Assembly (NCBI GenBank): GCA_017939155.1
Contig: JAGAZZ010000008.1
Span: 5,963-69,962 of the forward strand
From: Alphaproteobacteria bacterium
Lineage (GTDB): Bacteria > Pseudomonadota > Alphaproteobacteria > RF32 > CAG-239
DNA: 64,000 nt
Reading direction: 5' to 3'
Numbering within the stretch: position 1 is the first letter of the stretch; each line of letters starts with the position of its first letter. The notes under the pieces are model-generated. The model did no database searches. It saw nothing but the letters and a program-made list of their open reading frames with translations, and was not told where the DNA came from. Of the stretch, positions 14,261 through 46,198 are shown piece by piece. Both the position numbers and the translations under genes were made by a program.

Positions 14261-15016
14261 ATGCCAAACAAATATGCCGCATTATTTTTAACGCTTATAC
14301 TGTCAACCCCGGTTTTAGCAGAAGTTGACATAAAACGCTATATCACCCCGGACGATGTCCAATGTTCACTCAAAGCCCCGCAAAACATTATGTTTTGCAC
14401 TGATAACGACGGTGCACCGATTACCGGTGAAATGGTCAAATATTTTGAAGGCACGATAATTAGACTTTACACCCTAAAAGACGGAATCCTTGACGGCACC
14501 GGGTATGTTTACTACACCGACGGCACGCCAAAATCAGAAATTCCCTACATCCAGGGTCAAGTTAACGGCATAATGAAAAAATATGACCGCATGGGCAAAT
14601 TAAGCGAAGAAATACCTTATCAAAACAATAAAAAAGAGGGTATCGCCAAATATTATGACGAAAAAGGCTCCCTTATCAGCCAAATGGTCTATTTAGATGA
14701 TGAGCCGAACGGTGATATGTATATCTATGACAGTTTAAAAAAAATCCCCCTCTATCGCCTAAAAAACCTCAGCGGTCAGTTTATCTCCGGCACCTATACT
14801 TATCAAATTGCCGATACTAAACTCAAAACCGTCCAAATTCCGGACGTAATCATCACGGCGTTTAATAAAAAATGTCTTGATTTTCAACCCGCACTTACCA
14901 CGTCGCCTTGCGCCGCATTTTATAACCAAAATTCTGAATGTGACCAAGCCTGGCGAAAGAGAAATCGCCAAGCCGTGCGCGCCTACCTAAAAACCTGCGG
15001 AGAGGAAAATGAATAA
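14261..15016 (+). CDS. secreted MORN-variant (YwqK-like) repeat protein
   Basis: Signal peptide ending ...PVLAEV. Repeated G...Y...G....E.PY..G...G units (YYTDGTPKSEIPYIQGQVNG, KKEGIAKYYDEKG). Confidence 0.6.
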   Translation: MPNKYAALFLTLILSTPVLAEVDIKRYITPDDVQCSLKAPQNIMFCTDNDGAPITGEMVKYFEGTIIRLYTLKDGILDGTGYVYYTDGTPKSEIPYIQGQVNGIMKKYDRMGKLSEEIPYQNNKKEGIAKYYDEKGSLISQMVYLDDEPNGDMYIYDSLKKIPLYRLKNLSGQFISGTYTYQIADTKLKTVQIPDVIITAFNKKCLDFQPALTTSPCAAFYNQNSECDQAWRKRNRQAVRAYLKTCGEENE

Positions 15017-18700: not shown

Positions 18701-21700
18701 CGGAAACACACCGTGTTATAACTGTGATTACAGCTGTCGTAATTCTTATGAATCCAAAACAGAATGTGAAGCTGCCGCAGCAAGTACGCAATATTGCAAA
18801 GAAGCAACAACCAACATCACCTGTTGGTATCCGGTAGAATACGCTTGCCCATCAGGATATACGGCAGGCTTGAAAAAAGAAGACTGTGACACCTATAAAA
18901 ACGGTCATTATTACGACCAAACAATCGTCGTCCCCGATAGTGAAAACTCTCAAGGAATAGATAGCGAAGGTAATATAGCAAATTGTTATCAATGCGGTTT
19001 CAATTGTATCGGAGAGCACGATAACCAACCCTTAGTCACAGACAAAACCGCTCAAGGCTATGTTTATTTTAAGCTTTGGGATAATCCGGAATGTTATCTC
19101 CAAAAGCTCCCCGGAGACGGCAGTTACGGGCAATGTGTTGACAAAGACGAAAAAATTGGCTCGGCATATCCTGAAAGCTATATAAACGCGGAAGGTTGCC
19201 CGAAGATTCAAAACGCTGTGACAACAACAAACGAAAGCAGTTGGCAAATAGTAGAGCTCGTCGGTTTCTATTACGCCAGTGAACAATGCTATCTGTGCGC
19301 CAGCAATCCTTGTTCGAACCAAAAGACCGGAACCGATACACAATGCAATCAAACCGGTTTCACTAAAGGAGAAGTAGATGCTTCCATCACTTCGGGTACA
19401 ACAGCTTGCTATACCTGCAGTTGCGACACTGCAAACGGCTATTATGCTTCAGAAAGCGAAGTACCTGACTGTGCTGATAATGTTAAAAGTGTCAGCAACT
19501 ATAATGGTATGACCTGCTACTATTGCGGAACATCAACAGCCTCCTTGCTCTCCTTATTAAATGATACTGTCAACAATCAAACCCGAATAGTTTATCACGA
19601 AGAGGGAGATTATCAGGGAATTGCCAACATTAATGCTGGCGCCTCAGCCCCGATAGAGGGAGACCCGTTAAGCGGTGACGCCACAGCCTCGCTCACGCTT
19701 TATAATAGCGCGTCCAACGCCAAAATCGCATTACAGGCAGGACAAAACCGCACAACCTATAACGCTAAAGCTAACGGAACAGATGCCGAAAATGCAGTTT
19801 CCGCCAAAGGTGAACTTAACCTCATTATGCAAGACGGCGCCAATAATGTAACCGCCGCCGGCATAACCACCAATGATAACGCTTATAATGCCTATGCCGA
19901 GGGCAACGCCATAGCCGAAGGCAGAATTAATATAGAAGATACCAAATCTGCCACCAACGTCATTTATGGTATATCATCCGCGCGCAACGCATATAACGCT
20001 TATGCCAACCAAGAGCTGGCGCAAGCTTCGGGCACTATCAACATCAATACCATCACCGACAAACAAGCCTACGGTATATTTGCCGCTCAAGACATTTATA
20101 ACCAAACAGACAACCAACAAACCAGTATCGTTAATGTGCGCGGTACCGGTTCGGGGGACATCTATGGTCTGTATTCTAAGTCCGGCAATATTTATAACAG
20201 CGGGGAGGTAAATGTTTCTTCCGCGTCCGGTAATGCTTACGGTCTTTATCTTGAAAACGGCAATAACAGCCAAATTGAAAACAGCGGTCAAATTACCGTT
20301 TCAAGCAATGAGAAATCTGCCTACGGCATTTATGTCAAAGACGCTGAAAACGGCGTCACCGTTACCAATACCGGCTCAATAACCGCCACCGGCGATAGCC
20401 AAAGCCGCGGTATCAAAATTGAGCAAAATGGTCAAAACGCCACCGTCATCAACCAAGGTCAAATCACCGTTAATGGGGCACTAAATGCCGAAGAGTCCGC
20501 CATAGATTTAGGCGGCGGCAAGTTTGCTAACGCCGGCGAGATTAAATTTATCGGCGCGCAAAACCTTGATGTCTTAAACGGTAAATTCACACTTGAAAAA
20601 GGTGGGCACATAGAAGCTGACGTTTTAAGTGGTGACTTAACTATCGGCACCTCCGTTGTCAAAGAGGGCTTTAAAGATACTTATGTGGAAGAGGGGGCGA
20701 TAAAAGCTCAAGATATTCAAGACTTAAATCTCTCTTCAGAATCAGCCTTATTCACCGCTCAAGTCAAGAAAAACGCCAACGAAAACCTCTATGACGCCGA
20801 GGCAAACCGTCGCAATTTCAATGAGTTTACCCCCAATAGTTCCATCGGCAACTATCTGGAAAATAACTATCATCAGGAAAAACTGGCACAACTGTTTGAA
20901 AAGTTAAAATCCGCTAACTCTGACGCTATCCTTGCCGCCGACATCTTAAAGCAAACCGGCGCGGACATCTTGCCCAACTTGGCGCAAGAAAACTTAATGG
21001 CGTTAAGAAACTCGGCTGAGGTCATCACCGACGCTGTTCTGGCTGATAACGATGAGGAAAACCGTGTTATCTCCGGCGCTGACGCTTATTTCCAAGACGC
21101 AGAAGCCAAAAACGGCGTCACCGGTTATGATAACACCACGGCAACAGCCTATATGTTTGGCGATAAGCGCTTAGACAATAAAAACCGCTTAGGCTTAGGT
21201 TTATCCTATATGCAGATGTCAAGCTCTTATGACAACGGCGGCAGTCGTACGCAAAACTTTGTTTCCTTGTTCTTCCCGTGGTTGCACAAATTCACCGAAA
21301 AGCTCAAACTGGCCTCGGTCTTAAACTTCGGCTACGGCTGGGGCAAATTTGACCGCGGTATCGGCAACGAAGCTGACCTGACCGACTATATCTATGGTCT
21401 AAGCAACAAACTTATCTACTCTATGAATTTAGCAGATATAGCAGAACTTGAGCCGGCTTTAATGTTTAACGTCCAGGGCTACACCGCCGATGATATGAAT
21501 ATGGGTGACCTTAAAGTCAAACAAAGTAATCATATCTCTGCCGAAGCAGGAATTGGTCTATACATCAAGAAAAGCTTTTCTGATGAAAAATACGGCAAGC
21601 TGACCGCTCGTCTTGGCGGTGCTTATTATCACGAGTTTGCCAACCCGTATCGCCGAATCAGGGCAGGGTTCGCTGATGGCGTCGGCAGTTTCAGCATAAA

Positions 21701-21854
21701 CGACTATGCCGGCATATATAGCCGTGACCGCGCCGTTCTCTCTGCTATGCTGAACTATGAATACAAGCGCATTGCGCTATATTTGAAGTACAATCGCTTC
21801 ATACAGCGTAAAAACAGCCAAAACTTGGATATGGGCGTTAAATATAACTTCTAA
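15786..21854 (+). CDS. classical (type Va) autotransporter with a Cys-rich modular passenger
   Basis: 2022 aa. It has a signal peptide, one ankyrin-like unit, Cys-rich modules, beta-helix-type repeats (AYGIY.., YGLYS.., SRGIKI) and a C-terminal beta-barrel ending ...MGVKYNF. Confidence 0.85.
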   Translation: MLQKSQIRRKTIFFMSIFSLLFCQLMFATRPSANENPTPEQIYNAAKIRDGKALQNYKKFINIEDENGQTALCLAQQNKDKYSYEMLLVFGADREVDCHDDKDPICAIVVGEKLKLSPAGAWILAGTATAGAIAGIAAGTDLINHHEPCPEGYSKRYKTVADCGVTGAEGWLWEDGGIHHRDQCGKCTPKEYDTGCSILYQSVADCGPHAGEGWEWSASGYSGDVWCGICTPKICPTTESPTTRGSSTFYHTPYHCPIRKFMKPTAPTHAGWYGEEECFTCNYQCDEKTGFATQTACQTNAEGAIGFTCQLDPATQCYYRSHTPNPDAPDGGKNECPVTESTTTRGSSTLYNIPYHCPIIKFMKPTTPTHAGWSGDEECFTCNYQCDEETGFGSQTTCQTNDEGGIGYTCQLDPTSKCYYRSHTPDPDNPDGGRNDCPVDTAPNRIGSKVDYINQAYCPTKQYMTATGVERVAYSGEEGCYTCLYNCDEETGFASQTACQTNDEGATGYTCQLDPSSQCYYRSHTPNPDNPDGGENECPNTDSKTTRGSSTLYNIPEHCPTIKYMKPTTPTSAGWSGEKECFTCNYQCDEETGFANQTTCQTNEAGATGYICQLDPTSGCYYRSTTPNPDNPDPGKKECPVDNAQNRIGSKIEYINQNACPTKQYMTVTGVEPGAYSGEDRCYTCLYNCDEKEGFASETTCKTNEAGAIGYTCQLDPKSGCYYRSTTPNPDNPDPGKTPCTSPFDVKYQEVSDCVKYNGGTTDGWNWTQSGWSGEEKCGNCEAKACTAPSSTEYESTANCPPLPNKIAVAVQATGNYAGSDPCNECIYWCDPAQRSFSTPEACEANAAGSQCIEADGCWVVKDDCPEGYHTWIQNCNNKQHPSGWKLESNGSSNGISCNKCVEIPCSPANVTDVSTCGSTGAAGWELVSNGYSGNDLCQICQALTCPSSEETGSCSAGTYENVTATPSGNYAGNTPCYNCDYSCRNSYESKTECEAAAASTQYCKEATTNITCWYPVEYACPSGYTAGLKKEDCDTYKNGHYYDQTIVVPDSENSQGIDSEGNIANCYQCGFNCIGEHDNQPLVTDKTAQGYVYFKLWDNPECYLQKLPGDGSYGQCVDKDEKIGSAYPESYINAEGCPKIQNAVTTTNESSWQIVELVGFYYASEQCYLCASNPCSNQKTGTDTQCNQTGFTKGEVDASITSGTTACYTCSCDTANGYYASESEVPDCADNVKSVSNYNGMTCYYCGTSTASLLSLLNDTVNNQTRIVYHEEGDYQGIANINAGASAPIEGDPLSGDATASLTLYNSASNAKIALQAGQNRTTYNAKANGTDAENAVSAKGELNLIMQDGANNVTAAGITTNDNAYNAYAEGNAIAEGRINIEDTKSATNVIYGISSARNAYNAYANQELAQASGTININTITDKQAYGIFAAQDIYNQTDNQQTSIVNVRGTGSGDIYGLYSKSGNIYNSGEVNVSSASGNAYGLYLENGNNSQIENSGQITVSSNEKSAYGIYVKDAENGVTVTNTGSITATGDSQSRGIKIEQNGQNATVINQGQITVNGALNAEESAIDLGGGKFANAGEIKFIGAQNLDVLNGKFTLEKGGHIEADVLSGDLTIGTSVVKEGFKDTYVEEGAIKAQDIQDLNLSSESALFTAQVKKNANENLYDAEANRRNFNEFTPNSSIGNYLENNYHQEKLAQLFEKLKSANSDAILAADILKQTGADILPNLAQENLMALRNSAEVITDAVLADNDEENRVISGADAYFQDAEAKNGVTGYDNTTATAYMFGDKRLDNKNRLGLGLSYMQMSSSYDNGGSRTQNFVSLFFPWLHKFTEKLKLASVLNFGYGWGKFDRGIGNEADLTDYIYGLSNKLIYSMNLADIAELEPALMFNVQGYTADDMNMGDLKVKQSNHISAEAGIGLYIKKSFSDEKYGKLTARLGGAYYHEFANPYRRIRAGFADGVGSFSINDYAGIYSRDRAVLSAMLNYEYKRIALYLKYNRFIQRKNSQNLDMGVKYNF
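16488..18002 (+). repeat. five tandem 303-nt (101-aa) Cys-rich modules inside the autotransporter gene
   Basis: Module starts (CP..) fall at aa 235, 336, 437, 538 and 639. There are two alternating subtypes in the order A-A-B-A-B. Confidence 0.9.
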
Positions 21855-30941: not shown

Positions 30942-31033
30942 TGGCGGAGAGATAGGGATTCGAACCCTAGGTACCCCGAAAAGAGTACAATTGATTTCGA
31001 GTCAACCGCATTCGACCACTCTGCCATCTCTCC
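30942..31033 (-). tRNA. tRNA-Ser (anticodon CGA)
   Basis: 92-nt class II tRNA. GGAGAGA acceptor, anticodon loop CTCGAAA, long variable arm, GGTTCGAATCC T-arm, encoded CCA. Confidence 0.9.
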
Positions 31034-35974: not shown

Positions 35975-36631
35975 ATGTCAAATTCTTTCACATCAACTCT
36001 TGGCGTGATAACGTTCAACGAGTTCAAAACATTGTTTTACCGTACGTTAGCGGAAAAAACAGCAAAAAATCCCAAACTTTTGACCAATAAAAGCAGGGAA
36101 TACGCCAAAGCTTTGTCTTTGCAAACAAGCGAATCAGACAACTATGATTTCAAAACAGACCTCAAAATCGGCTTTGAAAAGCTCTATGACATCACGACCG
36201 AAATCGCTGATAAAATCAAAGCCGGAGCTCTTGTAAATAGCTGGACATCGCTTCTGTTAAAACACTGGGAAGACCCTGATAAAACTGTTAAAACAATGTT
36301 TAACCTGTTAGCGGGCTCTTATGCCGACATACTCTTATTAAAAGGGAGCAGGGTGCTCTTAAACCCTGTTTTTATGTTTGACAAAGACCTCATTAAATCA
36401 TATTTGGAAACACCGCAAAACGTTACGTCTTCTTTTGTAGCAGCACCGCTGCCGTTGTACCTTCACATGGAATACTTCTATTTTGAAAACTCCCCGGCAA
36501 CGCCGTCATGCTACAAACAGCAAAATATCGGAACGGAATTTGTAAAGCGCTTTTTTAACGCTATAAACAGCTATTCCGCCGTCTTGCCTCAAGAAAACGT
36601 AAAAAGAACTTTCCAAGATTATCTAAAATGA
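35975..36631 (+). CDS. hypothetical protein
   Basis: 218-aa ORF followed by a strong terminator. No motif recognised. Confidence 0.45.
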   Translation: MSNSFTSTLGVITFNEFKTLFYRTLAEKTAKNPKLLTNKSREYAKALSLQTSESDNYDFKTDLKIGFEKLYDITTEIADKIKAGALVNSWTSLLLKHWEDPDKTVKTMFNLLAGSYADILLLKGSRVLLNPVFMFDKDLIKSYLETPQNVTSSFVAAPLPLYLHMEYFYFENSPATPSCYKQQNIGTEFVKRFFNAINSYSAVLPQENVKRTFQDYLK

Positions 36632-36990: not shown

Positions 36991-37018
36991 TTGTCGCATA
37001 ATATATATTACAATTTCC
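36991..37018 (+). other. degenerate dif-like site (attL of the inserted element)
   Basis: TTGTCGCATAA|TATATA|TTACAATTTCC. The first 20 nt are identical to 45302-45321, and the right arm has diverged. Confidence 0.6.
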
Positions 37019-37045
37019 CATTTCCAATAGAGATGGGGATTTTCT

Positions 37046-37747
37046 ATGTTTTCGATTTGTCCGCAAAAAGTATTTACAAACAAAAGGTTAACATCAACAG
37101 ACTTACGTGTTTATCTCTCAATACAAGGATTCGCTAATCAAGAGGGATATTGTTACCCGTCTATTGCCAAAATTGCTACAACTTTAGGCGTATGCCGCAG
37201 AACAATAGAACGGAGCTTATCACGCCTCGAAAAAGAGCAGGTAATAGCCCGCTCAAAACGTATTAAAAATGACGGCGGATATACTTCAAACGGCTATTAC
37301 TTAAAATTAGAGCCCAAAGGCGAAAACATCAATGAAACAGCCGCTTTAAACGATACGACAAATATGACGCAGGGTATACGGCAAGATTGTCGCATACCTA
37401 GCGACACAAATGACGCAACGAACTATAATCAATGTAATAATAATAATTTTAATTTTAATAATACGCGTGCGTGCGCACGCGAAGAACTCGGCAACGAATA
37501 TGTGCAGGCGGAGATAACAGAGGAAGACCGCCAAGCCGTACAAGTCGCCAAATGTTATTCTCAAAATTACAGATTTATCAAGCTACCGGACGGAAAAATC
37601 GCCATTCGTCCTGCGGCTGGCTTTGTGCTGTCTGAAACACCAGCCGCTCAAGCCATTGTTGACTGCTTAACCTATAAATTTGGCTATGACGTCATTCTTG
37701 TAGATTTTAATCAACATTTTTTAGGCGAAATTGAGATAAGGAGTTAA
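37046..37747 (+). CDS. winged-helix/HTH replication-initiator-like or regulatory protein
   Basis: LTSTDLRVYLSIQGFANQEGYCYPSIAKIATTLGVCRRTIERSLSRLEKEQVI resembles phage/plasmid replication HTH domains. It has an Asn-rich linker and no HUH motif. Confidence 0.5.
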   Translation: MFSICPQKVFTNKRLTSTDLRVYLSIQGFANQEGYCYPSIAKIATTLGVCRRTIERSLSRLEKEQVIARSKRIKNDGGYTSNGYYLKLEPKGENINETAALNDTTNMTQGIRQDCRIPSDTNDATNYNQCNNNNFNFNNTRACAREELGNEYVQAEITEEDRQAVQVAKCYSQNYRFIKLPDGKIAIRPAAGFVLSETPAAQAIVDCLTYKFGYDVILVDFNQHFLGEIEIRS

Positions 37748-37751
37748 ACCT

Positions 37752-37964
37752 ATGTATATTTTAAAAATTTTTATCAAAAATGAAAAAGGCGCGTATGTGC
37801 AAATTAAAAAATTTGAGCTTTCAGGCAAACTCGACAATGAGGCACGCACTAGAGGCGAAAAAATAGCCAAAAGCCACAATCCAAACGCAATAGCGTATTT
37901 TGAGGAAATACCTGCTGATATTGACGCAGGACGTAAACTCAAAGAAGTAACAAGGGGGATGTAA
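37752..37964 (+). CDS. small phage protein
   Basis: 70 aa; its stop overlaps the next start (TAATG). Confidence 0.45.
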   Translation: MYILKIFIKNEKGAYVQIKKFELSGKLDNEARTRGEKIAKSHNPNAIAYFEEIPADIDAGRKLKEVTRGM

Positions 37965-38221
37965 TGGCAGAAGTAGTAGGACGTATGACTTGTCCGGTTT
38001 GCGGCGAGGAAATGCAAGATTTAAAAGTTAACAAAAACCAAAAACTTTATATGTACTGCGACAATGGCTGTTGCATAAGGCTAAATTCCAAACAAAGCCG
38101 CTACATCCGCGCCCAACTGGCGCAAAAAAAGGCGGTGAGTGTGGCAAAATTAGGCTATATCCGCCCAATAACCAAATTTGACGAAAGATTATTAAACGAC
38201 GATGACGAAGACGAATTTTAG
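37964..38221 (+). CDS. zinc-ribbon protein
   Basis: CPVCG ...(17)... CDNGCC, with an acidic tail. Confidence 0.5.
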   Translation: MAEVVGRMTCPVCGEEMQDLKVNKNQKLYMYCDNGCCIRLNSKQSRYIRAQLAQKKAVSVAKLGYIRPITKFDERLLNDDDEDEF

Positions 38222-38233
38222 AAAGGTAAATCA

Positions 38234-38722
38234 ATGACAAACGAAAATATTTTAAACAACGGCGGCAACGTAAGCGATGAAGAATTTGCAGAGATTAACG
38301 AAACAGTATTTGAGGAAACCAAACCGCAAGCCGTTGTTTTATCAACAGAAGAATTTAACCAACGTTTTATCGAAATGTTTGATATGTTCGGCGATATATG
38401 GGATATGCCGGAGTTCAAAATTAATCACGAAAAAACGCTTGAAGTCGCAGGGGCTAAGCTAACAGCCGGAAAGCTCTACAATCTTGCGCAAAAATATCCG
38501 CTAATGCACTTTTTGATTGAGCCATCCGGCGGCTGGTTTGGAGATTTTTGGTTAATTGGCGTTTTTTGCTGGAGTAAGGCGGATATTGTCAGCCGGAAAG
38601 TGTCCGGCTTAACCCTTGCCGGAAAAATCCGTAACTTTTTCCAAAAAACGAGGGGTAAAATGCAAGAAACAAGCCTTTTCAAACGTTTATTTCATAAAAC
38701 AGATGCAAAGGTTAAAAAATGA
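38234..38722 (+). CDS. hypothetical phage protein (acidic N-terminus, hydrophobic segment near aa 100-120)
   Basis: 162 aa; overlaps the ATPase start (ATGA). Confidence 0.45.
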   Translation: MTNENILNNGGNVSDEEFAEINETVFEETKPQAVVLSTEEFNQRFIEMFDMFGDIWDMPEFKINHEKTLEVAGAKLTAGKLYNLAQKYPLMHFLIEPSGGWFGDFWLIGVFCWSKADIVSRKVSGLTLAGKIRNFFQKTRGKMQETSLFKRLFHKTDAKVKK

Positions 38723-39351
38723 TTAAGAAAGACGTGCAAGCGCGCCGAATAGGAATATTTGGCGCATCCGGTAGCGGGAAGACCACAAAGGCGCTTGATT
38801 TGGTGGAAAAAGTCACCCGTTTAATCGCCTTTGACCCGCTGGACGATTTAACCAAAATCAAAACCCGTATTTCAGATATGAACTATCTGAAGAATTTTGT
38901 CATAAAAAACTATGCAAAGGGCTTCCGTGTCCGCTTCGTACCGGAACTCGGCAAAGCAAAAGAGCAGTTATCCGAAATTAGCCTTTTCTTGCGCGAATTA
39001 CAGGCAGGCTATAAGTTCAACCGGCACAATGCGCTTGTCACGCTGTTTGTCGATGAGCTTGATACAAGCTTCCCGCTCAATATCAGCCGTTCAATGACTG
39101 ATAACGGATTTTATTTTCTCTGTTGCCGAGGGCGACACTACGGGATAAACATTGTCGGTATTAGTCAGCGTATGAGTTTAGTCGATTTGCCTTTTCGCGC
39201 GAACTTATCAGACTTGTTCGTTTTCCGGCTTGCAGATTTTAACGACATCAAAGCGGCAGTTCAAATGCTTGGCACACCATACCGACAACGTATTGTCGAT
39301 TTAACCAACTTTAAATACATCTACAAAAACCCTGAGGGAGTAATAAAATGA
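38719..39351 (+). CDS. small P-loop ATPase (genome-packaging-type / Zot-N-like)
   Basis: Walker A GASGSGKTT and Walker B TLFVDELD. It is 210 aa with no TM, and sits just upstream of the capsid-size gene. Confidence 0.7.
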   Translation: MIKKDVQARRIGIFGASGSGKTTKALDLVEKVTRLIAFDPLDDLTKIKTRISDMNYLKNFVIKNYAKGFRVRFVPELGKAKEQLSEISLFLRELQAGYKFNRHNALVTLFVDELDTSFPLNISRSMTDNGFYFLCCRGRHYGINIVGISQRMSLVDLPFRANLSDLFVFRLADFNDIKAAVQMLGTPYRQRIVDLTNFKYIYKNPEGVIK

Positions 39352-39500
39352 CGTTTTATGTAATCGTGTATAATTCTTGGCGGGGTATTGATGTTTTTGA
39401 ATTTAACACAGAAGCAATGGCACAATGTTTTATTCGCAACAACGAAGTAAAAGAGTTCGTTATAATTCAGGGAACACTAATTGAAAAAACTATAAACTAA
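39348..39500 (+). CDS. small phage protein (50 aa)
   Basis: Hand-translated as MTFYVIVYNSWRG...; ATGA overlap with the ATPase stop. Confidence 0.4.
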   Translation: MTFYVIVYNSWRGIDVFEFNTEAMAQCFIRNNEVKEFVIIQGTLIEKTIN

Positions 39501-39614
39501 ATTTTCTTATATAACGTACATATACATACATAAGGCAGGCGCGACTTGCGTAATGTTAAAACGGTAGGTAAACATAACCTATCGTTTTTTTAATTTTAAC
39601 AGAGGGGAAAACCT

Positions 39615-39704
39615 ATGAAATCATTACTTAAAATTATGGCAGGCGTTGTCGCTGGTATTTATGTTTACGAATACATCAAATCTGCAACATCAAAATCTAA
39701 ATAG
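39615..39704 (+). CDS. 29-aa single-TM peptide
   Basis: MKSLLKIMAGVVAGIYVYEYIKSATSKSK with a GAGGGG SD. Confidence 0.4.
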   Translation: MKSLLKIMAGVVAGIYVYEYIKSATSKSK

Positions 39705-39715
39705 GAGAAACGCTA

Positions 39716-40579
39716 ATGTCACAGGTAAAAAAAATCCTTATCCACGAATCAAAGGCTATCAGTGCCGGAACAATTTTGACCTATAATGTGCCGTCATTTG
39801 ATACGATTGACGACATCGTTCTTGAGTTCTTAAATTCCGGCGCCGCCGCAACCAAAGCAAACGTTTTAGCTGGTGTTGGCAAAATTGCCCTAAATATCAA
39901 CGGCGAACAGGTAGTTAATCTGCCTATCGCGCGTTTGTATGACATTTACGCCGCGCTCGGAACAGAAGTCACCCAAAACTTAACCAACTGTATCGGTTTG
40001 AATATAGGGCGTTATCTGTTCAAAGACTCGAACAATGAAGACTACTTTGCGTATGGTTGCGCCGATATTCAGACAATTCAGGTTCAAGTTTACCTCAATT
40101 CAACTGTTACCGGCTTGACAGATTGCCAAGTTAGCACAATCCGCCGCGCAACTAACCAGTCTCTTGGCTCTTATATCAAAGCTATCAACTACCCGCAGAC
40201 AATGAACACCACCGGTATTTCAACGGTTGACACTTTGCCGCGTGATAGCAATGAAGCTTATTTGTCAATTATGGCGCACAACGGCGGCGGTGCAATCTCA
40301 GGCGGTGAATGTGTTGTCAACGGTAACTCGGTATTTGACCCTATCAGTCAGTCTTTAGATGATTACATCGTCAACGCTCGCGGTTTAGCCGCTGTTTCCG
40401 GTGTGTTTAACTACTCTTTCTCAGACGGCGCCGTAAAAGGTATTTTACCTATGCAAGGCGTAACTGAGTTGCGTTTGAAAACCACTTTTACAACCGCACC
40501 GACAAATGGAAACTACGACCTTGTCGCCGTTTCTATTCGTAACGTACCGGCTCAAATGCTTAAAGCCGTTGCCGCTTAA
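39716..40579 (+). CDS. putative major capsid protein
   Basis: 287 aa with no TM and an AGGAGA SD, followed by a GC stem-loop. Its position after the ATPase and its size resemble tailless-phage MCPs. This is an inference only. Confidence 0.45.
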   Translation: MSQVKKILIHESKAISAGTILTYNVPSFDTIDDIVLEFLNSGAAATKANVLAGVGKIALNINGEQVVNLPIARLYDIYAALGTEVTQNLTNCIGLNIGRYLFKDSNNEDYFAYGCADIQTIQVQVYLNSTVTGLTDCQVSTIRRATNQSLGSYIKAINYPQTMNTTGISTVDTLPRDSNEAYLSIMAHNGGGAISGGECVVNGNSVFDPISQSLDDYIVNARGLAAVSGVFNYSFSDGAVKGILPMQGVTELRLKTTFTTAPTNGNYDLVAVSIRNVPAQMLKAVAA

Positions 40580-40593
40580 AGGTTTTTCAAATC

Positions 40594-40612
40594 GGGCGGG
40601 TCGCTCCCGCCC
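40594..40612 (+). terminator. GC-rich stem-loop after the capsid-size gene (attenuator / mRNA stabiliser)
   Basis: GGGCGGG TCGCT CCCGCCC, with no strong T-run. Confidence 0.3.
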
Positions 40613-40632
40613 ACTTTAGGAGATTTAGATAA

Positions 40633-40875
40633 ATGTCAGATAATGCAGGAAATTCTACGAGTTGGTGGCAATGGATTGCAAACACGGCGCAAGAAGTTTA
40701 TCAAACAAAATTAGGCGCTGATGTAGCAATGAAAAACTCGGAAGTATTAGCTCAACAGCAAGAAGATAATAACACTTTGTCATTTTTGGGAATGACATTG
40801 CATAAGGATACGCTTCTTTGGGTCGGTGGCGGTACGTTGCTGGTTGTTTTGGTTGTAGCGCTTTTAAGGAAGTAA
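40633..40875 (+). CDS. small membrane protein (C-terminal TM)
   Basis: 80 aa; ...LLWVGGGTLLVVLVVALLRK. Confidence 0.5.
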   Translation: MSDNAGNSTSWWQWIANTAQEVYQTKLGADVAMKNSEVLAQQQEDNNTLSFLGMTLHKDTLLWVGGGTLLVVLVVALLRK

Positions 40876-40879
40876 TAAA

Positions 40880-41161
40880 ATGAGTTCGAGCCAAAACAAC
40901 GCAGACGCAAATAGAAATACAGGCGGATATATTGGAGAATTAGAGGCAAACCTTGGCCTTGATGACGCTTTCAATAATCTTTTTGCAGGATTTGGCTCAT
41001 CCAGCGCAACCGCAAACTCAGGCTTATCAACTGGCAACTGGGGAACTCACTCATCTTCCATCAACATAGACAGCCCGACAATGAGCTTGTCAAAAATGAT
41101 AACGTTTTGCGGTGTAGCTCTTATCGGATATTGGCTTTTTAAGAAAATAGCGAGGAAGTAA
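40880..41161 (+). CDS. small membrane protein (C-terminal TM)
   Basis: 93 aa; ...MITFCGVALIGYWLFKKIARK. Confidence 0.5.
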   Translation: MSSSQNNADANRNTGGYIGELEANLGLDDAFNNLFAGFGSSSATANSGLSTGNWGTHSSSINIDSPTMSLSKMITFCGVALIGYWLFKKIARK

Positions 41162-41568
41162 TGGGGTTATTTAGTTCAAAATCAAAATCTAGCTCAAAAA
41201 CGACCACAAATTACACCGATAATTCAACAAATAACGAATCCGCGGCAAGTTTAGGGGCTTTGTCACACGACAACGTAGTTGTCGGCGCAGGTTCAACCTA
41301 TAACTACACGGAGGGCGGATTGACCGGCGAGAATTTAAAGAACTTGCTCGGCACGGTTGAAACTCTGAATGAACAGACAAATAGCGCTTGGGATAGTTAT
41401 GTAACAGGCGTTCAAAAATCAGCTGAAAAAGCAATGGACACAACCGCGCAAGCCTATGCGGAATCCGATAGCGAATTAAGAAACATCATAGACGCAGTGA
41501 AACCTATCGCTTTATACGCCGCAATCGCCGCAGTTTTTTATTTCATTTTTAGGGGGAAGAAATGGTAA
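41161..41568 (+). CDS. membrane-anchored protein (C-terminal TM)
   Basis: 135 aa with a Ser/Thr/Asn-rich N-terminus; ...PIALYAAIAAVFYFIF. Confidence 0.5.
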   Translation: MGLFSSKSKSSSKTTTNYTDNSTNNESAASLGALSHDNVVVGAGSTYNYTEGGLTGENLKNLLGTVETLNEQTNSAWDSYVTGVQKSAEKAMDTTAQAYAESDSELRNIIDAVKPIALYAAIAAVFYFIFRGKKW

Positions 41569-42179
41569 GCAATATAAATCTAGGTTCGGTTCAAGCGCCA
41601 TACTGGGAGCAAACTATCACTTTGCCGCCACACGGTTATCATAAAGTTCAATACGTTACCGATAACTTTCAACTTTTATCAACAAGCCTGCCAAACGCTT
41701 TAAAAGTGAGTTTTGGCGGTTCTATGATTGACACGCCTTTCCGCGCCGGTATGGGCTACCGTTTAACAGAGCCGGTACAGTTTGTAGAGCTAAGAAACGA
41801 CAACGATGTTGAATTAACTGTTGATTTTGTGCTGGGTATCGGACAAATTCAAGATAATCGTCTAAACGTGGTTGGACAAATTGACACTAGAACAACTTTG
41901 TTAGGTTATACTAAAATAGAATTTAACCATTTTAGTTTAAATGCAGGCACGACCGGCGCACGACCATCACCAAAAAACGGAATTATAGCATATAGCGTTA
42001 CAAAAGGAACACTCAGACTTAGATTAACACCACCCGGCGGAAGCTCTGATAGCGTGTATATAGAACTCCAAGAAGGACAATCATTTGAGTTTCCATCATC
42101 ACAACAAATATTAATTTATTACCAAAATCCCTCAAGTTCAGCCAAAGTCGAATTCAATCTATTTGTGGGAGAATACTAA
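41562..42179 (+). CDS. hypothetical structural protein (vertex/spike-associated?)
   Basis: 205 aa, soluble, overlapping its neighbours; lies immediately before the tail-collar gene. Confidence 0.4.
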   Translation: MVSNINLGSVQAPYWEQTITLPPHGYHKVQYVTDNFQLLSTSLPNALKVSFGGSMIDTPFRAGMGYRLTEPVQFVELRNDNDVELTVDFVLGIGQIQDNRLNVVGQIDTRTTLLGYTKIEFNHFSLNAGTTGARPSPKNGIIAYSVTKGTLRLRLTPPGGSSDSVYIELQEGQSFEFPSSQQILIYYQNPSSSAKVEFNLFVGEY

Positions 42180-42694
42180 TGACAATATTTAGCGGAGGTG
42201 GAAATAGTGGTGTAAAAGCAGGTTCTCTCTTAATGTGGGCGACAAACACTCCTCCTGAGGGGTATTTACTATGTGATGGTTCTGCTGTTTCTCGAACGAC
42301 CTATTCAGAACTTTTTAAAGTCATTGGCACAACTTTTGGCGCTGGAAATGGCTCAACAACATTTAATTTACCTACACTTAAAATTCCCGATGGAGCTGGA
42401 AATTTCACGGTGTATGGTGATGGAAACGCATTGCGTTGCCAAAATGGAGCGGGTCAACTTGGATATATGACAGCGCACCACGGGTCAGACGGTGAAGCCT
42501 ACCCAACGTTTTATACAACAAATGATATTGTAACAACTGGAGGAGGTGTCGGTTCAACCCCGAAATCTACTGCAAATGTTGCCTATGGCTTAGCACAAAA
42601 ATCTGTGGTAAGTTTGCAAGAAAACAAATCAACTGGTTTATATGTCGATTTTTCAGCTGAAACTTCAAATATAACTGCAATTATCAAATATTAG
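42179..42694 (+). CDS. phage tail-collar-domain (receptor-binding type) protein
   Basis: GSLLMWATNTPPEGYLLCDGSAVSRTTYSELFKVIGTTFGAGNGSTTFNLPTLK matches the tail-collar consensus (P.GW..CdG..l....Y..Lf..iG..fG.g....F.lPdl). Confidence 0.75.
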   Translation: MTIFSGGGNSGVKAGSLLMWATNTPPEGYLLCDGSAVSRTTYSELFKVIGTTFGAGNGSTTFNLPTLKIPDGAGNFTVYGDGNALRCQNGAGQLGYMTAHHGSDGEAYPTFYTTNDIVTTGGGVGSTPKSTANVAYGLAQKSVVSLQENKSTGLYVDFSAETSNITAIIKY

Positions 42695-42704
42695 GAGAAA
42701 TCAA

Positions 42705-43085
42705 ATGAAAGCTTATAAATACGACACCGAAAATCACAAATATTTAAAGGAAGTCACTTGTCAGTTAGACCCTTTGGAAACAATAAAAGCAGGAGAAAAT
42801 ATTTGGTTATTGCCTGCAGATTGCACATTTAAAGAGCCTTTACCACAAAAAGAGGGATATTTTGTTAAATTTGACGGAAATGATTGGATTTATGAAGAAA
42901 TACCACAACCGGAGCCGACACCTGAGCTGGTTCTTACATACGCCGATTTACGCCGCGCCGAATATCCGGCAATTCCTGAACAGTTAGATATGATTTACTG
43001 GGACAAGGTAAAAGGCACAAATAGATGGGAAGAAAAAATCAGCGAAATCAAAGCAAAATATCCGAAAGTTGATTTAAATGATTAA
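42705..43085 (+). CDS. hypothetical protein (fibre-chaperone-like position)
   Basis: 126 aa directly after the receptor-binding gene. No firm motif. Confidence 0.35.
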   Translation: MKAYKYDTENHKYLKEVTCQLDPLETIKAGENIWLLPADCTFKEPLPQKEGYFVKFDGNDWIYEEIPQPEPTPELVLTYADLRRAEYPAIPEQLDMIYWDKVKGTNRWEEKISEIKAKYPKVDLND

Positions 43086-43536
43086 GTGGTTAGCATACAT
43101 AGCCGCCGCTTATGTGGCATATAGAATATTAAAAAAGGGGTACGATATGACCAACGACCAAACAGATTATTTAGCCCGCACAATTTGGGGAGAAGCAAGA
43201 GGCGAGGGCGCTCGTGGTATGCAAGCAGTCGGCAACGTGATTATGAATCGCGTAAAAGCCGGCGGTTGGTATGGGGCAAGTATAAAAGACGTAGTTTTAA
43301 AGCCATATCAGTTCAGCGCGTGGAACGTTGGCGACCTCAACCGCGCTAAAATGTTAAACGCCACACCGGCACAATTATCAACTGCGCGAAAAATCGCCGA
43401 ACAACTACAATCTGGCGCATTACCTGATATAACCGGTGGCGCAACAAACTACCACGCAACCGGTATTTCGCCGTTGTGGGCGAAGAAAATGACCAAAACG
43501 GTACAAATCGGCAACCATATTTTTTATAAAGAGTAG
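43078..43536 (+). CDS. SleB-type cell-wall hydrolase with an N-terminal membrane anchor
   Basis: TM segment WLAYIAAAYVAYRIL, then LARTIWGEARGEG..GMQAVGNVIMNRV...PYQFSAWN (Hydrolase_2 signature). Confidence 0.8.
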   Translation: MIKWLAYIAAAYVAYRILKKGYDMTNDQTDYLARTIWGEARGEGARGMQAVGNVIMNRVKAGGWYGASIKDVVLKPYQFSAWNVGDLNRAKMLNATPAQLSTARKIAEQLQSGALPDITGGATNYHATGISPLWAKKMTKTVQIGNHIFYKE

Positions 43537-43544
43537 GGGGATAA

Positions 43545-43691
43545 ATGGGATATTTAGTTAGTTTTTTAGGCGGTGCGCTTGGTTGGGCTATTTTCGATAA
43601 AACAACCGAAAACGGCACAAAAAGCCTAAATTTAGTCGGATTGGCGGCACAAATGCTCGTCATCTATTGGGTTTACAAAAAATTGAAGTAA
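43545..43691 (+). CDS. 48-aa two-TM protein (holin-like)
   Basis: Hand-translated as MGYLVSFLGGALGWAIF...LAAQMLVIYWVYKKLK. Confidence 0.4.
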   Translation: MGYLVSFLGGALGWAIFDKTTENGTKSLNLVGLAAQMLVIYWVYKKLK

Positions 43692-43702
43692 AGGAGAAAA
43701 CA

Positions 43703-43900
43703 ATGTGGGGAACATTCTTAAAATTAGGCGGTTCATTGCTCGCAGGCTTAGGTATTGATTGGGCGTGGGATTCCTATCAAGAATCACAAGCCACGGCTGT
43801 CGAACAAGCGCAAATGAATAAACAGGCAAACTGGGGAAAGTGGATTCTAATCTCAGCGGCTGTTCTAGCAGGTTATTCAATGCTTAAAAAAGGACGGTAA
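43703..43900 (+). CDS. 65-aa two-TM protein
   Basis: ATG at 43703 after an AAGGAG SD; MWGTFLKLGGSLLAGLGI...WILISAAVLAGYSML. Confidence 0.45.
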   Translation: MWGTFLKLGGSLLAGLGIDWAWDSYQESQATAVEQAQMNKQANWGKWILISAAVLAGYSMLKKGR

Positions 43901-43903
43901 ACT

Positions 43904-44053
43904 ATGACGCAAGAGCTATTTAATCAATTACTGGCAAATAGCCCTATCGTTGGCGTTTTAATTTACTATGGGCAAAAAATCGTTCAAATCACTGAACGAC
44001 TTTCAAAAGTTGAGGGAATAATCTATGAACATTTTGGAAAAAATGAAAAATAA
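43904..44053 (+). CDS. 49-aa small protein
   Basis: Hand-translated as MTQELFNQLLANSPIVGVLIYYGQ... Confidence 0.35.
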   Translation: MTQELFNQLLANSPIVGVLIYYGQKIVQITERLSKVEGIIYEHFGKNEK

Positions 44054-44156
44054 AAGTTTTTGGGCAGGATTTTTGACTGCCTTTGCCGGTTTGGTTGGCG
44101 GTAGTCTTTCCGTACCGGATTTTTTAATCTCAATCATTAATTTAATAGGAGGCTAG
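44025..44156 (+). CDS. 43-aa single-TM protein
   Basis: MNILEKMKNKSFWAGFLTAFAGLVGG...; overlaps the previous ORF out of frame. Confidence 0.35.
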   Translation: MNILEKMKNKSFWAGFLTAFAGLVGGSLSVPDFLISIINLIGG

Positions 44157-44159
44157 GAT

Positions 44160-44291
44160 ATGGCTACACGCAAAAAACGCACATCCACGCGTAAAAAAAC
44201 GACTGCTAAACGCAAAGTTACAACACGCAAAAGAAAAATAACGAGAAAAAAGAAGAGTAGGGGCTTTCTTGCCGACTTTTTAAACTCGTAA
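44160..44291 (+). CDS. 43-aa extremely basic (Lys/Arg/Thr-rich) peptide
   Basis: MATRKKRTSTRKKTTAKRKVTTRKRKITRKKKSRGFLADFLNS with a GGAGG SD. Confidence 0.4.
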   Translation: MATRKKRTSTRKKTTAKRKVTTRKRKITRKKKSRGFLADFLNS

Positions 44292-44306
44292 AACTAAAGT
44301 TTTAAT

Positions 44307-44335
44307 TTGACTTTCTCATTTTTATTTCTCATAAT
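44307..44335 (+). promoter_or_regulatory. strong sigma70 promoter of the lipoprotein gene
   Basis: TTGACT, 17-nt spacer, CATAAT. Confidence 0.6.
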
Positions 44336-44370
44336 CTCTTAAAAGGTTTAAACTTTTAGGAGATTATTTG

Positions 44371-44736
44371 ATGAAAAAGTTGATTCTAGCAAGTATCTTA
44401 ATGCTTACAGCTTGCGCAACAGGTCCGAAAGATAGTGAAGTCGTTACTATTTTAAGTTATGAAAAATATACTGATTTATATGTAAATGACGAACTTGTCG
44501 GAATCAGCCACACACAAACAAGATTACCCTACAAAAACGCAAAAGAAACAAAAATTTACGGCAAGAAGCAGGGATGTCAAACAGTAGAGCTAAATGTTGA
44601 ATACGAATTTGATACGCCTATGCTCTTAAATCCTACAAATATCTTATATGTGCCTGAAAAATATTTAAGTTGGGACTGGTGGCGTCCATCTGAGGGAAAA
44701 ACACTATACAACGTGACACCTATTTGTAAAAACTAG
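44371..44736 (+). CDS. lipoprotein (element cargo, moron-like)
   Basis: MKKLILASILMLTAC lipobox. It has its own promoter and a TAGGAG SD. The track start at 44368 is TTG. Confidence 0.7.
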   Translation: MKKLILASILMLTACATGPKDSEVVTILSYEKYTDLYVNDELVGISHTQTRLPYKNAKETKIYGKKQGCQTVELNVEYEFDTPMLLNPTNILYVPEKYLSWDWWRPSEGKTLYNVTPICKN

Positions 44737-45148
44737 CCAATTTTACGTTTTTAATAGTGAGATAAGTTCGTACAGTAGCCGGAGTAACCTTTAGAACTTC
44801 GGCTATTTTTTTAACCGGAATATCGCATGCAGCCATCTTTTGCGCTGCATAAACCTTATGCGGGCGTATGCGCTTTTGCCATAAACTAAATTGTGCATCA
44901 ATTTTGCTCTCAATAAACCGAAGAGGCAACTCCATTTCATTAGCTATTAAAGATTTACTCTCTTCATAGCCAAATCCCGACATCAAATAATTATACAATT
45001 TGAGCGTAATCTTTGTACGTTCAAGTGCGTATGTATTTATTTTAGGGCAATTTAGAGCAAATTCTTTTATTTCTTTCATATACCGCAAAATACTATCAAA
45101 TGAATCATTTAATTCGCGTTCAACCCGCGATACTTGTAAATAGTCCAT
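44720..45148 (-). CDS. HTH DNA-binding protein (candidate lysogeny regulator)
   Basis: C-terminal VKKIAEVLKVTPATVRTYL HTH. It is the only minus-strand gene in the element. ATG at 45148 with an AAGGA SD. Confidence 0.55.
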   Translation of the reverse strand: MDYLQVSRVERELNDSFDSILRYMKEIKEFALNCPKINTYALERTKITLKLYNYLMSGFGYEESKSLIANEMELPLRFIESKIDAQFSLWQKRIRPHKVYAAQKMAACDIPVKKIAEVLKVTPATVRTYLTIKNVKLASFYK

Positions 45149-45301
45149 AGTCAAATCCTTGTGAATAATCTTAAATATTTATTAATTAATTTGTTATATA
45201 TGTTATGTATATAAAAAAATAAATTTAAAACAACTCATTTTTCTTAACGATTTTTTAAGTGTTTGGATTTATTTTGAAATAAATGAAGAGGGTTAATGGG
45301 G

Positions 45302-45329
45302 TTGTCGCATAATATATATTATGTATACT
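45302..45329 (+). other. candidate chromosomal dif site (XerC/XerD recombination site; attR)
   Basis: TTGTCGCATAA|TATATA|TTATGTATACT in 11-6-11 layout with a 16-bp palindromic core. It is close to the E. coli and B. subtilis dif sequences as recalled. Confidence 0.65.
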
Positions 45330-45535: not shown

Positions 45536-46198
45536 CTAAGACGCGTTATTAAGATTCAAAGCAGCAAGCTTATCTTTTGGTTTCACACCCCATTCTTTAA
45601 CACTCCAAAATTTATCACCATCTTCTTTTTCTAAAACACAAACGCCACCGGTACCAACTTTGATGTCAAATTCTTCAGCAAATTTAGCAAAATCGCCCGT
45701 CAGATGCGGCGCAAAGCGAATAATACCATTAGAGCTGACCACCAAAACCGTCTTGTTGTGGTAATCACGCTCAATTTCATCGGCAAATTCTTTCCACGCT
45801 TAAATAATACCTTTAACAGATACGTTCCATCCCTCAGGCACAATAGCCTCCCTATTCCAGGCATCCATTGCGTCCTGACCGATACGAGCAATCACCTCAT
45901 CTTCGGTTTTGGCTTCATCCGGTCCGTAATCAATCTCGGTAAAACGAGTATCGCTTTTAAGTGCAATATCTTTATCCAGCGCTGCAATCGCCAGCCTCGC
46001 GGTTTCTGTCGTTCTCTTTAACGGCGCTGCGAACACAACAGACGGAATAAATGAGCGCATTTTCAAATATTTGCCAACATTTGTACCTCTTTCGGTTTCG
46101 ACCAATGGCAAATCCGTCCGAGCACCAACGCGAAGCGGTGTCTGTTCTTTAGTAAAGGTGTTGCCATGCCGTGCAATAACAATTCTTGTCGTCATCAT
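45536..46198 (-). pseudogene. histidine phosphatase (PGAM/CobC-like) gene interrupted by one in-frame TAA
   Basis: The N-terminal ORF has the RHGNT motif. The stop is at 45800-45802. The same frame continues AWKEFADEIERDYHNKTVLVVSSNGIIRF with no other stop. The expected SHG is SNG. Confidence 0.7.

Follow-up and report, generated by a model that had tools for sequence, protein, structure and literature searches.

What kind of element surrounds the virion-like genes in a 64,000-nucleotide (nt) stretch of contig JAGAZZ010000008.1 (hereafter the window), and how did it become part of the chromosome of its host? The first-pass annotation of this DNA had placed a virion module at 38719–42694 and read it as that of a tailless icosahedral phage of the PRD1/PM2 lineage. 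That reading is supported by the capsid fold, a P9-type ATPase and a PM2 gene order, and we put the probability at roughly 0.88 that positions 37011–45321 are the complete prophage of a tailless, icosahedral, internal-membrane double-stranded DNA (dsDNA) phage of the order Vinavirales, PM2-like and known from its genes alone. The prophage looks intact, and the site that it occupies, in a gut alphaproteobacterium not yet cultured, resembles dif. The element is not new in kind: the novelty of lineage that the annotation implied has to be given up, since the group was already published in 2022 (Yutin et al. 2022, Viruses 14:1842, PMC9502842). What is new here is a pair of base-exact borders and a dif-type set of attachment (att) sites for this gut clade. 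Features of the element are given on the plus strand except where a minus strand is stated.

Capsid protein and packaging ATPase

The major capsid protein is the 287-amino-acid (aa) product of 39716–40579. An AlphaFold (AF2) model built from a 28-sequence alignment (predicted local distance difference test, pLDDT, 90.1; predicted template modelling score, pTM, 0.88) has a double jelly-roll fold, and a Foldseek search of the PDB with this model placed PM2 P2 (2vvf_A) at the top (E 1.8e-17, TM 0.76/0.81), followed by iridovirus, PBCV-1, STIV and PRD1/PR772 capsid proteins, likewise double jelly-rolls. The same 28 sequences, used as a profile, align with PM2 P2 over 212 columns (hhalign probability 82%, E 1e-5). 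A non-capsid fold was not found, and the predicted structure identifies the protein as a double jelly-roll of the PM2 P2 type. In a large protein collection there are 226 homologues, many of them on contigs of about 8 kb. Homologues with 59–78% identity exceed the cut-off of Pfam P2_C, the C-terminal domain of the PM2 coat protein P2, while their P2_N matches are weak and stay below the cut-off. The single capsid sequence found nothing among PDB sequences, Pfam, PHROGs or GenBank phages (the last by tblastn, up to E 10), and a pattern scan of IMG/VR with the capsid alignment returned no relative. The link from this capsid protein to PM2 came only by way of homologues, profile and predicted fold. 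Standard annotation would miss this prophage. Phages that are tailless and contain a membrane are under-detected; neither the IMG/VR pattern scan nor the capsid search of GenBank phages returned a relative.

Just upstream of the capsid gene, 38719–39351 encodes a 210-aa protein with the motifs GASGSGKTT (Walker A) and LFVDELD (Walker B). Its only matches in the phage collection are the "putative ATPase" proteins of eleven NO16-type vibriophages (26% identity, E 1e-7), and BLASTP against PM2 P9 gave E 1e-4. An alignment with the relatives, NO16 and PM2 shows the Walker A and Walker B motifs and a GR..G...SQR..D block to be common to all. As a profile the protein matches Jorvik P9 (probability 98.8%, E 9e-17) and, in the PDB, HerA (5e-17), FtsK (2e-6) and the STIV packaging ATPase B204 (2.4e-6). 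These relationships mark it as a P9-like packaging ATPase of the FtsK/HerA superfamily.

The annotation had asked whether this ATPase might group instead with Zot. The top Pfam match of the single sequence is indeed Zot (E 5.4e-4), at 19.9 bits against a cut-off of 20.3, and 2r2a, the chain of a Zot N-terminal domain, scores 3.8e-6 with the profile. An inovirus-like element, in which the ATPase would be a Zot/pI assembly protein, could be read from these matches, the more so as inoviruses also integrate at dif via XerCD. The HerA, Jorvik, PM2 and NO16 matches are far stronger than those to Zot, so that the protein groups with FtsK/HerA and the P9 ATPases, and its sequence has neither a C-terminal membrane domain nor a transmembrane segment. 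No inovirus-type coat protein lies beside it; the element encodes a capsid protein with a double jelly-roll, proteins for vertex and fibre, and a cell-wall hydrolase, none of which is an inovirus feature. The capsid fold effectively eliminates the inovirus explanation, and Zot-like proteins are distant relatives of this P-loop group.

Every item of the gene order described in the annotation was found: the ATPase, two tiny open reading frames (ORFs), the 287-aa protein, three small proteins with transmembrane helices, the 205-aa protein and the tail-collar protein. The Shine–Dalgarno sequence noted before the capsid ORF (TAGGAGA, 8 nt upstream) and the GC stem-loop after it (40594–40612) are likewise present. 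With the flanking genes added, the order reads P14-like factor, gene at the ORF h position, ATPase, tiny membrane protein, capsid protein, small membrane proteins, vertex protein and lysin. When 18 ORFs were scanned against Pfam, and 10 of these also against PHROGs, families of terminase, portal, tape-measure or tail tube/sheath proteins drew no match, with one exception by name: the ATPase matches phrog_2666 ("terminase large subunit", 3e-15), only through the C-terminal part of its 555-position profile. The content of the virion module thus stands as annotated, and its extent does not: on the right it reaches at least 43085, the end of a gene resembling those for fibre assembly, and 43536, the end of the lysin gene, and on the left it probably reaches 38234.

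A genome of 8–9 kb with a double jelly-roll capsid protein and a temperate lifestyle also recalls the single-stranded DNA (ssDNA) membrane-containing phages of the FLiP/PhiCjT23 type (Finnlakeviridae), and dif-type integration is discussed for PhiCjT23 too. A prophage does not reveal which type of nucleic acid the particle contains. PM2 P2 is nevertheless the best capsid match, the gene order is that of PM2 and the packaging ATPase is of the P9 type. The initiator is DnaD-like and not a rolling-circle HUH endonuclease, and the capsid protein falls within a published Vinavirales group (HGV). An ssDNA phage of this type is very unlikely, and we retain the assignment to the Vinavirales.

Vertex protein and fibre cassette

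The 205-aa product of 41562–42179 is a candidate for the penton, or vertex base. Among 31 homologues the N-terminal 105 residues or so are conserved and the C-terminal half is variable. The AF2 model (pLDDT 83.6) has two beta-sandwich domains (residues 14–92 and 118–204) joined by a low-confidence linker, which gives a conserved N-terminal and a variable C-terminal jelly-roll. In a library of viral structures (BFVD) the best two matches are proteins of 187 and 201 aa from the Vibrio phages 1.249.B and 1.057.O (E 2e-8 and 1.6e-6), which belong to the Autolykiviridae, order Vinavirales. The structure prediction that the annotation had recommended for this protein thus gave two jelly-roll domains with their best viral matches in the Autolykiviridae. 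In the PDB, the STIV turret protein A223 and the PM2 spike P1 match at about 1e-3, among many cupins. Cryo-electron microscopy of NO16 has shown a penton, GP14, whose proximal and distal jelly-rolls are connected flexibly, and a trimeric spike, GP13, encoded beside it (PMC13552765, PMC9966536). Because the layout here is the same as that of GP14/GP13, we take the 205-aa protein for the penton base, at a moderate level of confidence and on the basis of its predicted fold, its position and its viral structural neighbours.

Next to it, 42179–42694 encodes a 171-aa protein with a tail-collar domain (Pfam Collar, 7.6e-22), whose closest solved relative is a phage long tail fibre (PDB 8kec, E 1e-4). 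Only the collar domain of about 60 aa is common to this protein and the 4,389 proteins that it found. The C-terminal 100 residues or so are unique in the protein collection searched, which sets this fibre apart from the set of Yutin et al. In that set such genes are labelled "fiber" in a figure, and proteins of about 161 aa with pfam07484 are listed in the supplement (Yutin et al. 2022, PMC9502842). The idea, already put forward in the annotation, that the tail-collar protein serves as the vertex fibre is plausible, and it is probably the receptor-binding protein. The following gene, 42705–43085, encodes a 126-aa protein similar to chaperones of tail-fibre assembly (1.1e-5 and 6.6e-4 with PHROG tail-fibre-assembly families), and it accompanies the collar gene in two of the relatives, L010 and L015.

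Comparison of this slot among otherwise collinear relatives shows that its content differs. L003 has a 330-aa protein with an endosialidase-chaperone domain (Peptidase_S74), L004 and L006 have a T4 Gp10_C-like protein, and L007 has a protein with Gp34_trimer and Gp53-like_C domains. The occurrence of different tail-fibre modules in one place marks the region from penton to lysin as a modular cassette for receptor binding that is shared with tailed phages, and is evidence that tail-fibre modules are exchanged with them. The vertex could have two components, a pentameric two-jelly-roll base and a trimeric fibre whose tip-and-chaperone cassette would come from the tail-fibre pool of tailed phages and be freely exchanged.

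Borders and integration

The element lies between two perfect copies of a 20-nt direct repeat, TTGTCGCATAATATATATTA, at 36991–37010 and 45302–45321, so that its size, about 8 kb in the annotation, is exactly 8,311 bp. The left site, attL (36991–37018), consists of the host XerC-type arm TTGTCGCATAA, the central 6 nt TATATA and an XerD-type arm that is degenerate and comes from the phage, TTACAATTTCC; its left arm and spacer are retained and its right arm is unrelated. Five further distinct integrated relatives have this layout too. The right site, attR (45302–45329), is a complete dif-like site, TTGTCGCATAA-TATATA-TTATGTATACT. This arrangement of arm, 6-nt spacer and arm is that of dif, and the 28-bp site matches E. 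coli dif at 20/28 positions.

Conspecific contigs were recovered by looking up the neighbouring host KdsB protein, which returned the window's own contig, k141_78032 (180 kb), as well as L016 (601 kb) and L018. The last two are free of the prophage, and in them the host genes that flank the element adjoin each other. BLAST against them showed flanks that are 98% identical and that meet with an overlap of exactly 20 nt, from which the insert of 8,311 bp follows. Their single, empty site (attB) reads TTGTCGCATAA-TATATA-TTATGTATACT and is identical to attR. A 218-aa ORF at 35975–36631 was considered as part of the element and rejected as host DNA, because it stands beside the empty site in L016 and L018. 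Integration into a transfer RNA (tRNA) gene was also rejected, the nearest such gene being 6 kb away at 30942–31033. Over 20.8 kb, the window and the public contig (ENA ERZ28019245 k141_78032) differ in a single base, T>A at 45802, which changes a Lys codon to TAA in the host gene 45536–46198 (minus strand) for a His_Phos_1 phosphatase. This protein has 219 aa in the public contig and is cut into ORFs of 132 and 69 aa in the window.

The asymmetry between attL and attR recurs in L004–L008 and L015, where the spacer is the same in attL and attR within each genome and differs between genomes. The host-side XerD-type right arm, TTATGTATA(C/G)T, is kept across host species even where the flanking genes are unrelated, as expected for dif. 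The relative L003 is an 8,480-nt contig with a terminal overlap of 141 nt, and it is therefore circular (about 8.34 kb); its one att copy lies between the minus-strand regulator gene and rep. With attB, attL and attR from the occupied and empty sites and attP from this circle, the set of four sites is complete. No integrase, transposase, resolvase or other recombinase domain was found in any of the ORFs scanned. We infer that the element borrows the host XerC/XerD recombinases, as has been proposed for Jorvik and NO16; the att sequences carry the signature that such borrowing would leave. A further relative, L010, has identical att-like sites with near-identical flanks at 7053–7071 and 14990–15008 of a 27.9-kb contig, 7,937 bp apart, which suggests a tandem prophage array or a concatemeric assembly of a relative of about 7.9 kb.

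Once the element is circular, attP would fall within the divergent region of regulator and rep, some 35 bp upstream of the start codon of rep, so integration would cut rep off from the sequence upstream. Within the phage-derived arm of attL, at 37015–37039 and before the rep start at 37046, a 10-pair hairpin stands ahead of TTTTCT, and it could insulate rep from host read-through.

The life cycle that these data suggest would run as follows. The circular genome would recombine with the host site through XerC/XerD, leaving a hybrid attL with a degenerate XerD arm and rebuilding a full dif at attR, a way of exploiting Xer that is of the VGJ-phage type. Once the genome is excised, host replication would be recruited by the DnaD-like initiator. 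Capsid trimers would assemble on a vesicle bearing the small, C-terminally anchored proteins, and the ATPase would package the DNA at a vertex. The 205-aa protein would form a pentameric vertex base, on which the tail-collar protein, folded with the help of its chaperone-like neighbour, would be the exchangeable receptor-binding fibre. The SleB-type hydrolase and small membrane proteins would then lyse the cell. Taken together, VGJ-type integration through host XerCD into the genuine chromosomal dif and a two-component, symmetry-mismatched vertex are both true of this gut lineage at a little under even odds, in our estimate.

Several results weigh against this interpretation or parts of it. 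The window's own capsid protein has no Pfam match even at E 1, only its homologues having one, and the capsid profile does not detect Jorvik P2 (hhalign probability 3%). With regard to the Mestraviridae (exemplars Jorvik and Marinomonas phage YY), the ATPase is related in sequence to that of Jorvik; the capsid profile is shallow, so its miss does not exclude membership. The top PDB structural matches of the 205-aa protein are cellular bicupins, which also consist of two jelly-rolls, and its profile found nothing when compared with PM2 P1, Jorvik P1 and NO16 GP14. All three contigs that encode exactly this capsid protein are integrated copies. GC skew is negative on both sides of the insertion site and does not change sign there within the window, so the site may be elsewhere than at the replication terminus. 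Neither XerC nor XerD is evident in the window, in which no search was aimed at them.

The lack of a GC-skew inflection at the insertion site is one reason to consider an unrecognised recombinase encoded by the element, for which the 144-aa helix-turn-helix (HTH) protein and the replication initiator are candidates, acting on a site that resembles dif. The attB locations of Jorvik-like prophages are reported to be variable (PMC10589892), and in the Jorvik and NO16 papers the role of XerCD in Vinavirales phages is worded only as "likely", "suggesting" or "hypothesized". Such an enzyme is fairly unlikely in view of the 28-bp layout with its XerC arm, 6-nt spacer and XerD arm, its resemblance to dif, the conservation of the host-side XerD arm across host species with differing flanks, and the lack of recombinase domains in the ORFs scanned; the asymmetry of attL and attR is also that expected from Xer exchange.

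The integrated state of the three copies, together with the observation that Vinavirales of the gut are met almost exclusively as prophages (Yutin et al. 2022, PMC9502842), could mean that the element is a cryptic or domesticated remnant of a Vinavirales phage that no longer makes particles. We consider this unlikely, since all core ORFs are full length and collinear with those of the circular relative. Among conspecific genomes, moreover, some carry the element and others, 98% identical in their flanks, lack it precisely, which indicates that it moved recently. Many relatives occur as stand-alone contigs of about 8 kb, and the fast evolution of the receptor-binding slot suggests selection on infection.

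Early genes, small membrane proteins and lysis region

The first gene of the element, 37046–37747, encodes a replication initiator of the winged-helix HTH_36/DnaD-like type (Pfam HTH_36 2.2e-14, DnaD_N 3e-4), which also matches PHROG replication-initiation families with values down to 1e-16. DnaD-like winged-helix initiators are among the interchangeable replication genes of the Vinavirales (Yutin et al. 2022, PMC9502842). It is followed by a 70-aa protein (37752–37964) that is kept in close relatives only, has no family match and is given no function. The next gene, 37964–38221, encodes a zinc-ribbon protein whose CPxCG...C..C motif is invariant in 8 relatives. By position, and by weak sequence similarity (hhalign probability 52%, E 1.5e-4; tblastn on the P14 gene, E 8.6e-4), it is the likely counterpart of the PM2 transcription factor P14. 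The 162-aa gene at 38234–38722 is kept directly upstream of the ATPase gene in all relatives, and homologues of ORF h and PRD1 P10 occupy this position in gut Vinavirales (Yutin et al. 2022, PMC9502842). A comparison by hhalign with PM2 gp h and Jorvik gp6 found nothing, so the assignment to ORF h, a putative membrane-vesicle assembly factor of PM2, follows position only. At the other end of the element, 44720–45154 on the minus strand encodes a 144-aa protein with a C-terminal HTH (weak HTH matches only). Its gene is divergent from rep in the circular form and its border position is kept in all relatives; we infer a repressor or regulator. A TR_Z1 regulator at the genome border is a feature of the published clade A (Yutin et al. 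2022, PMC9502842).

Two tiny genes separate the ATPase and capsid genes. The first, 39348–39500, encodes a 50-aa soluble protein that is 56% identical in close relatives and is given no function. The second, 39615–39704, encodes a 29-aa hydrophobic protein, MKSLLKIMAGVVAGIYVYEYIKSATSKSK, the positional counterpart of the PM2 membrane protein P7. It is below the length limit of the ORF tool and was read from the sequence, a 29-aa gene being called at the same place in L004. Small P7-like genes lie between the ATPase and capsid genes of gut Vinavirales (Yutin et al. 2022, PMC9502842). A terminator-like hairpin with a 12-pair stem and a T run (39558–39588) stands between the early and ATPase genes on one side and the structural genes on the other, and it may act as a terminator there. 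The GC-rich hairpin after the capsid gene (40594–40612, GGGCGGG-TCGCT-CCCGCCC) has no T run and may have a role in attenuation or mRNA stability. Promoter and terminator scans gave counts that were not above the shuffled expectation, for which reason these hairpins are put forward individually and with caution.

Three small membrane-type ORFs lie between the capsid and vertex genes, in the positions of P3, P8 and P10 equivalents. The 80-aa protein (40633–40875), at the P3 position, has a C-terminal transmembrane helix (hydrophobic segment 58–80) and a weak hhalign match to PM2 P3 (probability 20%, E 1e-3). The 93-aa protein (40880–41161), with a C-terminal hydrophobic helix, is kept in relatives, and the 135-aa protein (41161–41568), with a C-terminal transmembrane helix (hydrophobic segment 109–131), is kept in all of them, down to 59% capsid identity. 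Both are candidates for virion membrane proteins.

Downstream of the fibre cassette, 43078–43536 encodes a SleB-type cell-wall hydrolase (Pfam Hydrolase_2, 2.8e-24). Its N-terminal hydrophobic stretch, MIKWLAYIAAAYVAYRIL, may serve for export or for tethering to the membrane, as in signal-anchor-release endolysins. SleB is the lysin type of the alphaproteobacterial clade A, where it replaces PM2 P5 (Yutin et al. 2022, PMC9502842). Five small ORFs follow (43545–44291), all kept in relatives. Four have hydrophobic segments and are, by position and by analogy with PM2 P17/P18, candidate holins or lysis factors. The fifth, at 44160–44291, encodes a 43-aa protein of which about half is Lys or Arg (MATRKKRTSTRKKTTAKRKVTTRKRKITRKKKSRGFLADFLNS); it is 95% conserved in close relatives and could, from this composition, be DNA-condensing. 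A 122-aa lipoprotein with the lipobox LTAC (44368–44736), an accessory or lysis gene product, is present in L003, L007 and L008, and in L004 its slot holds a hexapeptide transferase instead. L004 (91% capsid identity, same chromosomal site) has two hexapeptide-repeat transferase genes (6506–6961 and 14529–14981), one of them in this slot; the other lies just outside attL and may be left over from an earlier element at the site. In the host region of the window, a 2,022-aa ORF at 15786–21854 (plus strand) lies in a stretch of higher GC content (about 0.46–0.51).

Comparison with known systems

Relatives of the element are hosted by uncultured Alphaproteobacteria, known as metagenome-assembled genomes (MAGs) from the gut of mouse, roe deer, sheep and human. 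Some relatives stand in MAGs labelled Bacteroidaceae, Acutalibacteraceae or Lactobacillales (L008, L009, which equals L003, and L012, a 167-kb "Lactobacillales" contig); the small or circular contigs with non-alphaproteobacterial labels are probably binning errors.

Jorvik, a Rhodobacter phage (OP588643; Mestraviridae in the 2025 ICTV taxonomy), shares with the element an alphaproteobacterial host, a circular dsDNA genome about as large (8,762 bp), a clearly homologous P9 ATPase and structural genes in the PM2 order. It differs in that its capsid protein (328 aa) and P1 spike are not detected by profiles of the present family, its ATPase gene is on the strand opposite to the capsid gene, it has M15 and Slt hydrolases and an acetyltransferase, and its annotated attP sequence is different. 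Jorvik has no integrase, and dif-like attP and attB sites with use of XerCD have been proposed for it; it has been called the smallest known membrane-containing dsDNA phage (PMC10589892). The element described here is smaller, at 8,311 bp, and with relatives of about 7.9 kb it would, if the interpretation is true, be among the smallest autonomous membrane-containing dsDNA phages.

NO16, a Vibrio phage (MH730557, Asemoviridae) for which dif-like sites and XerCD integration have also been proposed (PMC13552765, PMC9966536), has the closest ATPase in the phage collection and the same order of ATPase, capsid and small membrane protein genes. It also has a two-jelly-roll penton with a flexible link and a separate spike gene alongside. 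Unlike the element, it has a gammaproteobacterial host and a spike that is a carbohydrate-binding beta-sandwich in place of a tail-collar fibre. The capsid profile matches its capsid protein weakly (probability 30%), and no sequence similarity was detected between the pentons.

PM2 itself (AF155037, a Pseudoalteromonas phage of the Corticoviridae) provides the best capsid fold match of all solved structures and a similar ATPase, and the order P14, ORF h, P9, P7, P2 and P3 is found in both. PM2 is a lytic phage with a 10-kb genome, a rolling-circle Rep (P12), a single 335-aa spike P1, P5 and P6, whereas the element is temperate and has a DnaD-like initiator, a 205-aa vertex protein, a fibre encoded apart from it and a SleB lysin. 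Membership in the PRD1-like Tectiviridae, whose linear genomes have inverted terminal repeats and encode a protein-primed family B DNA polymerase, was considered and rejected, as there is no polymerase, a relative is circular and integration is site-specific.

The nearest parallel in mode of integration is with CTX-phi and VGJ-phi of Vibrio, which encode no recombinase of their own, carry an attP that mimics dif and on integration regenerate a functional dif on one side. The element likewise has no recombinase of its own, a dif-mimicking attP and, after integration, one full and one hybrid site. Those phages are filamentous and contain ssDNA, whereas the present element is of the double jelly-roll icosahedral type.

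The closest comparison is with the gut Vinavirales themselves. Most double jelly-roll phages of the human gut are Vinavirales prophages in Alphaproteobacteria, HGV-1 to HGV-3 of clade A (Yutin et al. 2022, PMC9502842), and among varidnaviruses the HGV group is the main one in the gut of mammals. The capsid protein of the window is 70% identical over 286 aa to the "PM2-like HGV_A" capsid protein (Supplementary File S1 of Yutin et al.), and this pairwise capsid identity, together with the gut alphaproteobacterial hosts, places the element in the HGV group. It has in common with that group the SleB lysin, the DnaD-like initiator, the P14-like factor, the gene at the ORF h position, the tiny gene between ATPase and capsid genes, the tail-collar "fiber" and the alphaproteobacterial host. 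For these prophages the integration mechanism "remains unclear" apart from an HGV-2 transposase (Yutin et al. 2022, PMC9502842), and the XerCD/dif idea was published later for Jorvik-like alphaproteobacterial phages and for vibriophages (PMC10589892; PMC13552765, PMC9966536). The dif-type sites described here fill this gap for the lineage, and XerCD/dif integration, if true, would answer the question that Yutin et al. left open for the gut prophages. The borders, the att set and the available matched pair of lysogen and non-lysogen contigs should ease the design of host-range and induction experiments and of prophage callers. Unlike the published HGV prophages, this member of the group has its exact borders, a dif-like set of attL, attR, attB and attP, and its empty site documented.

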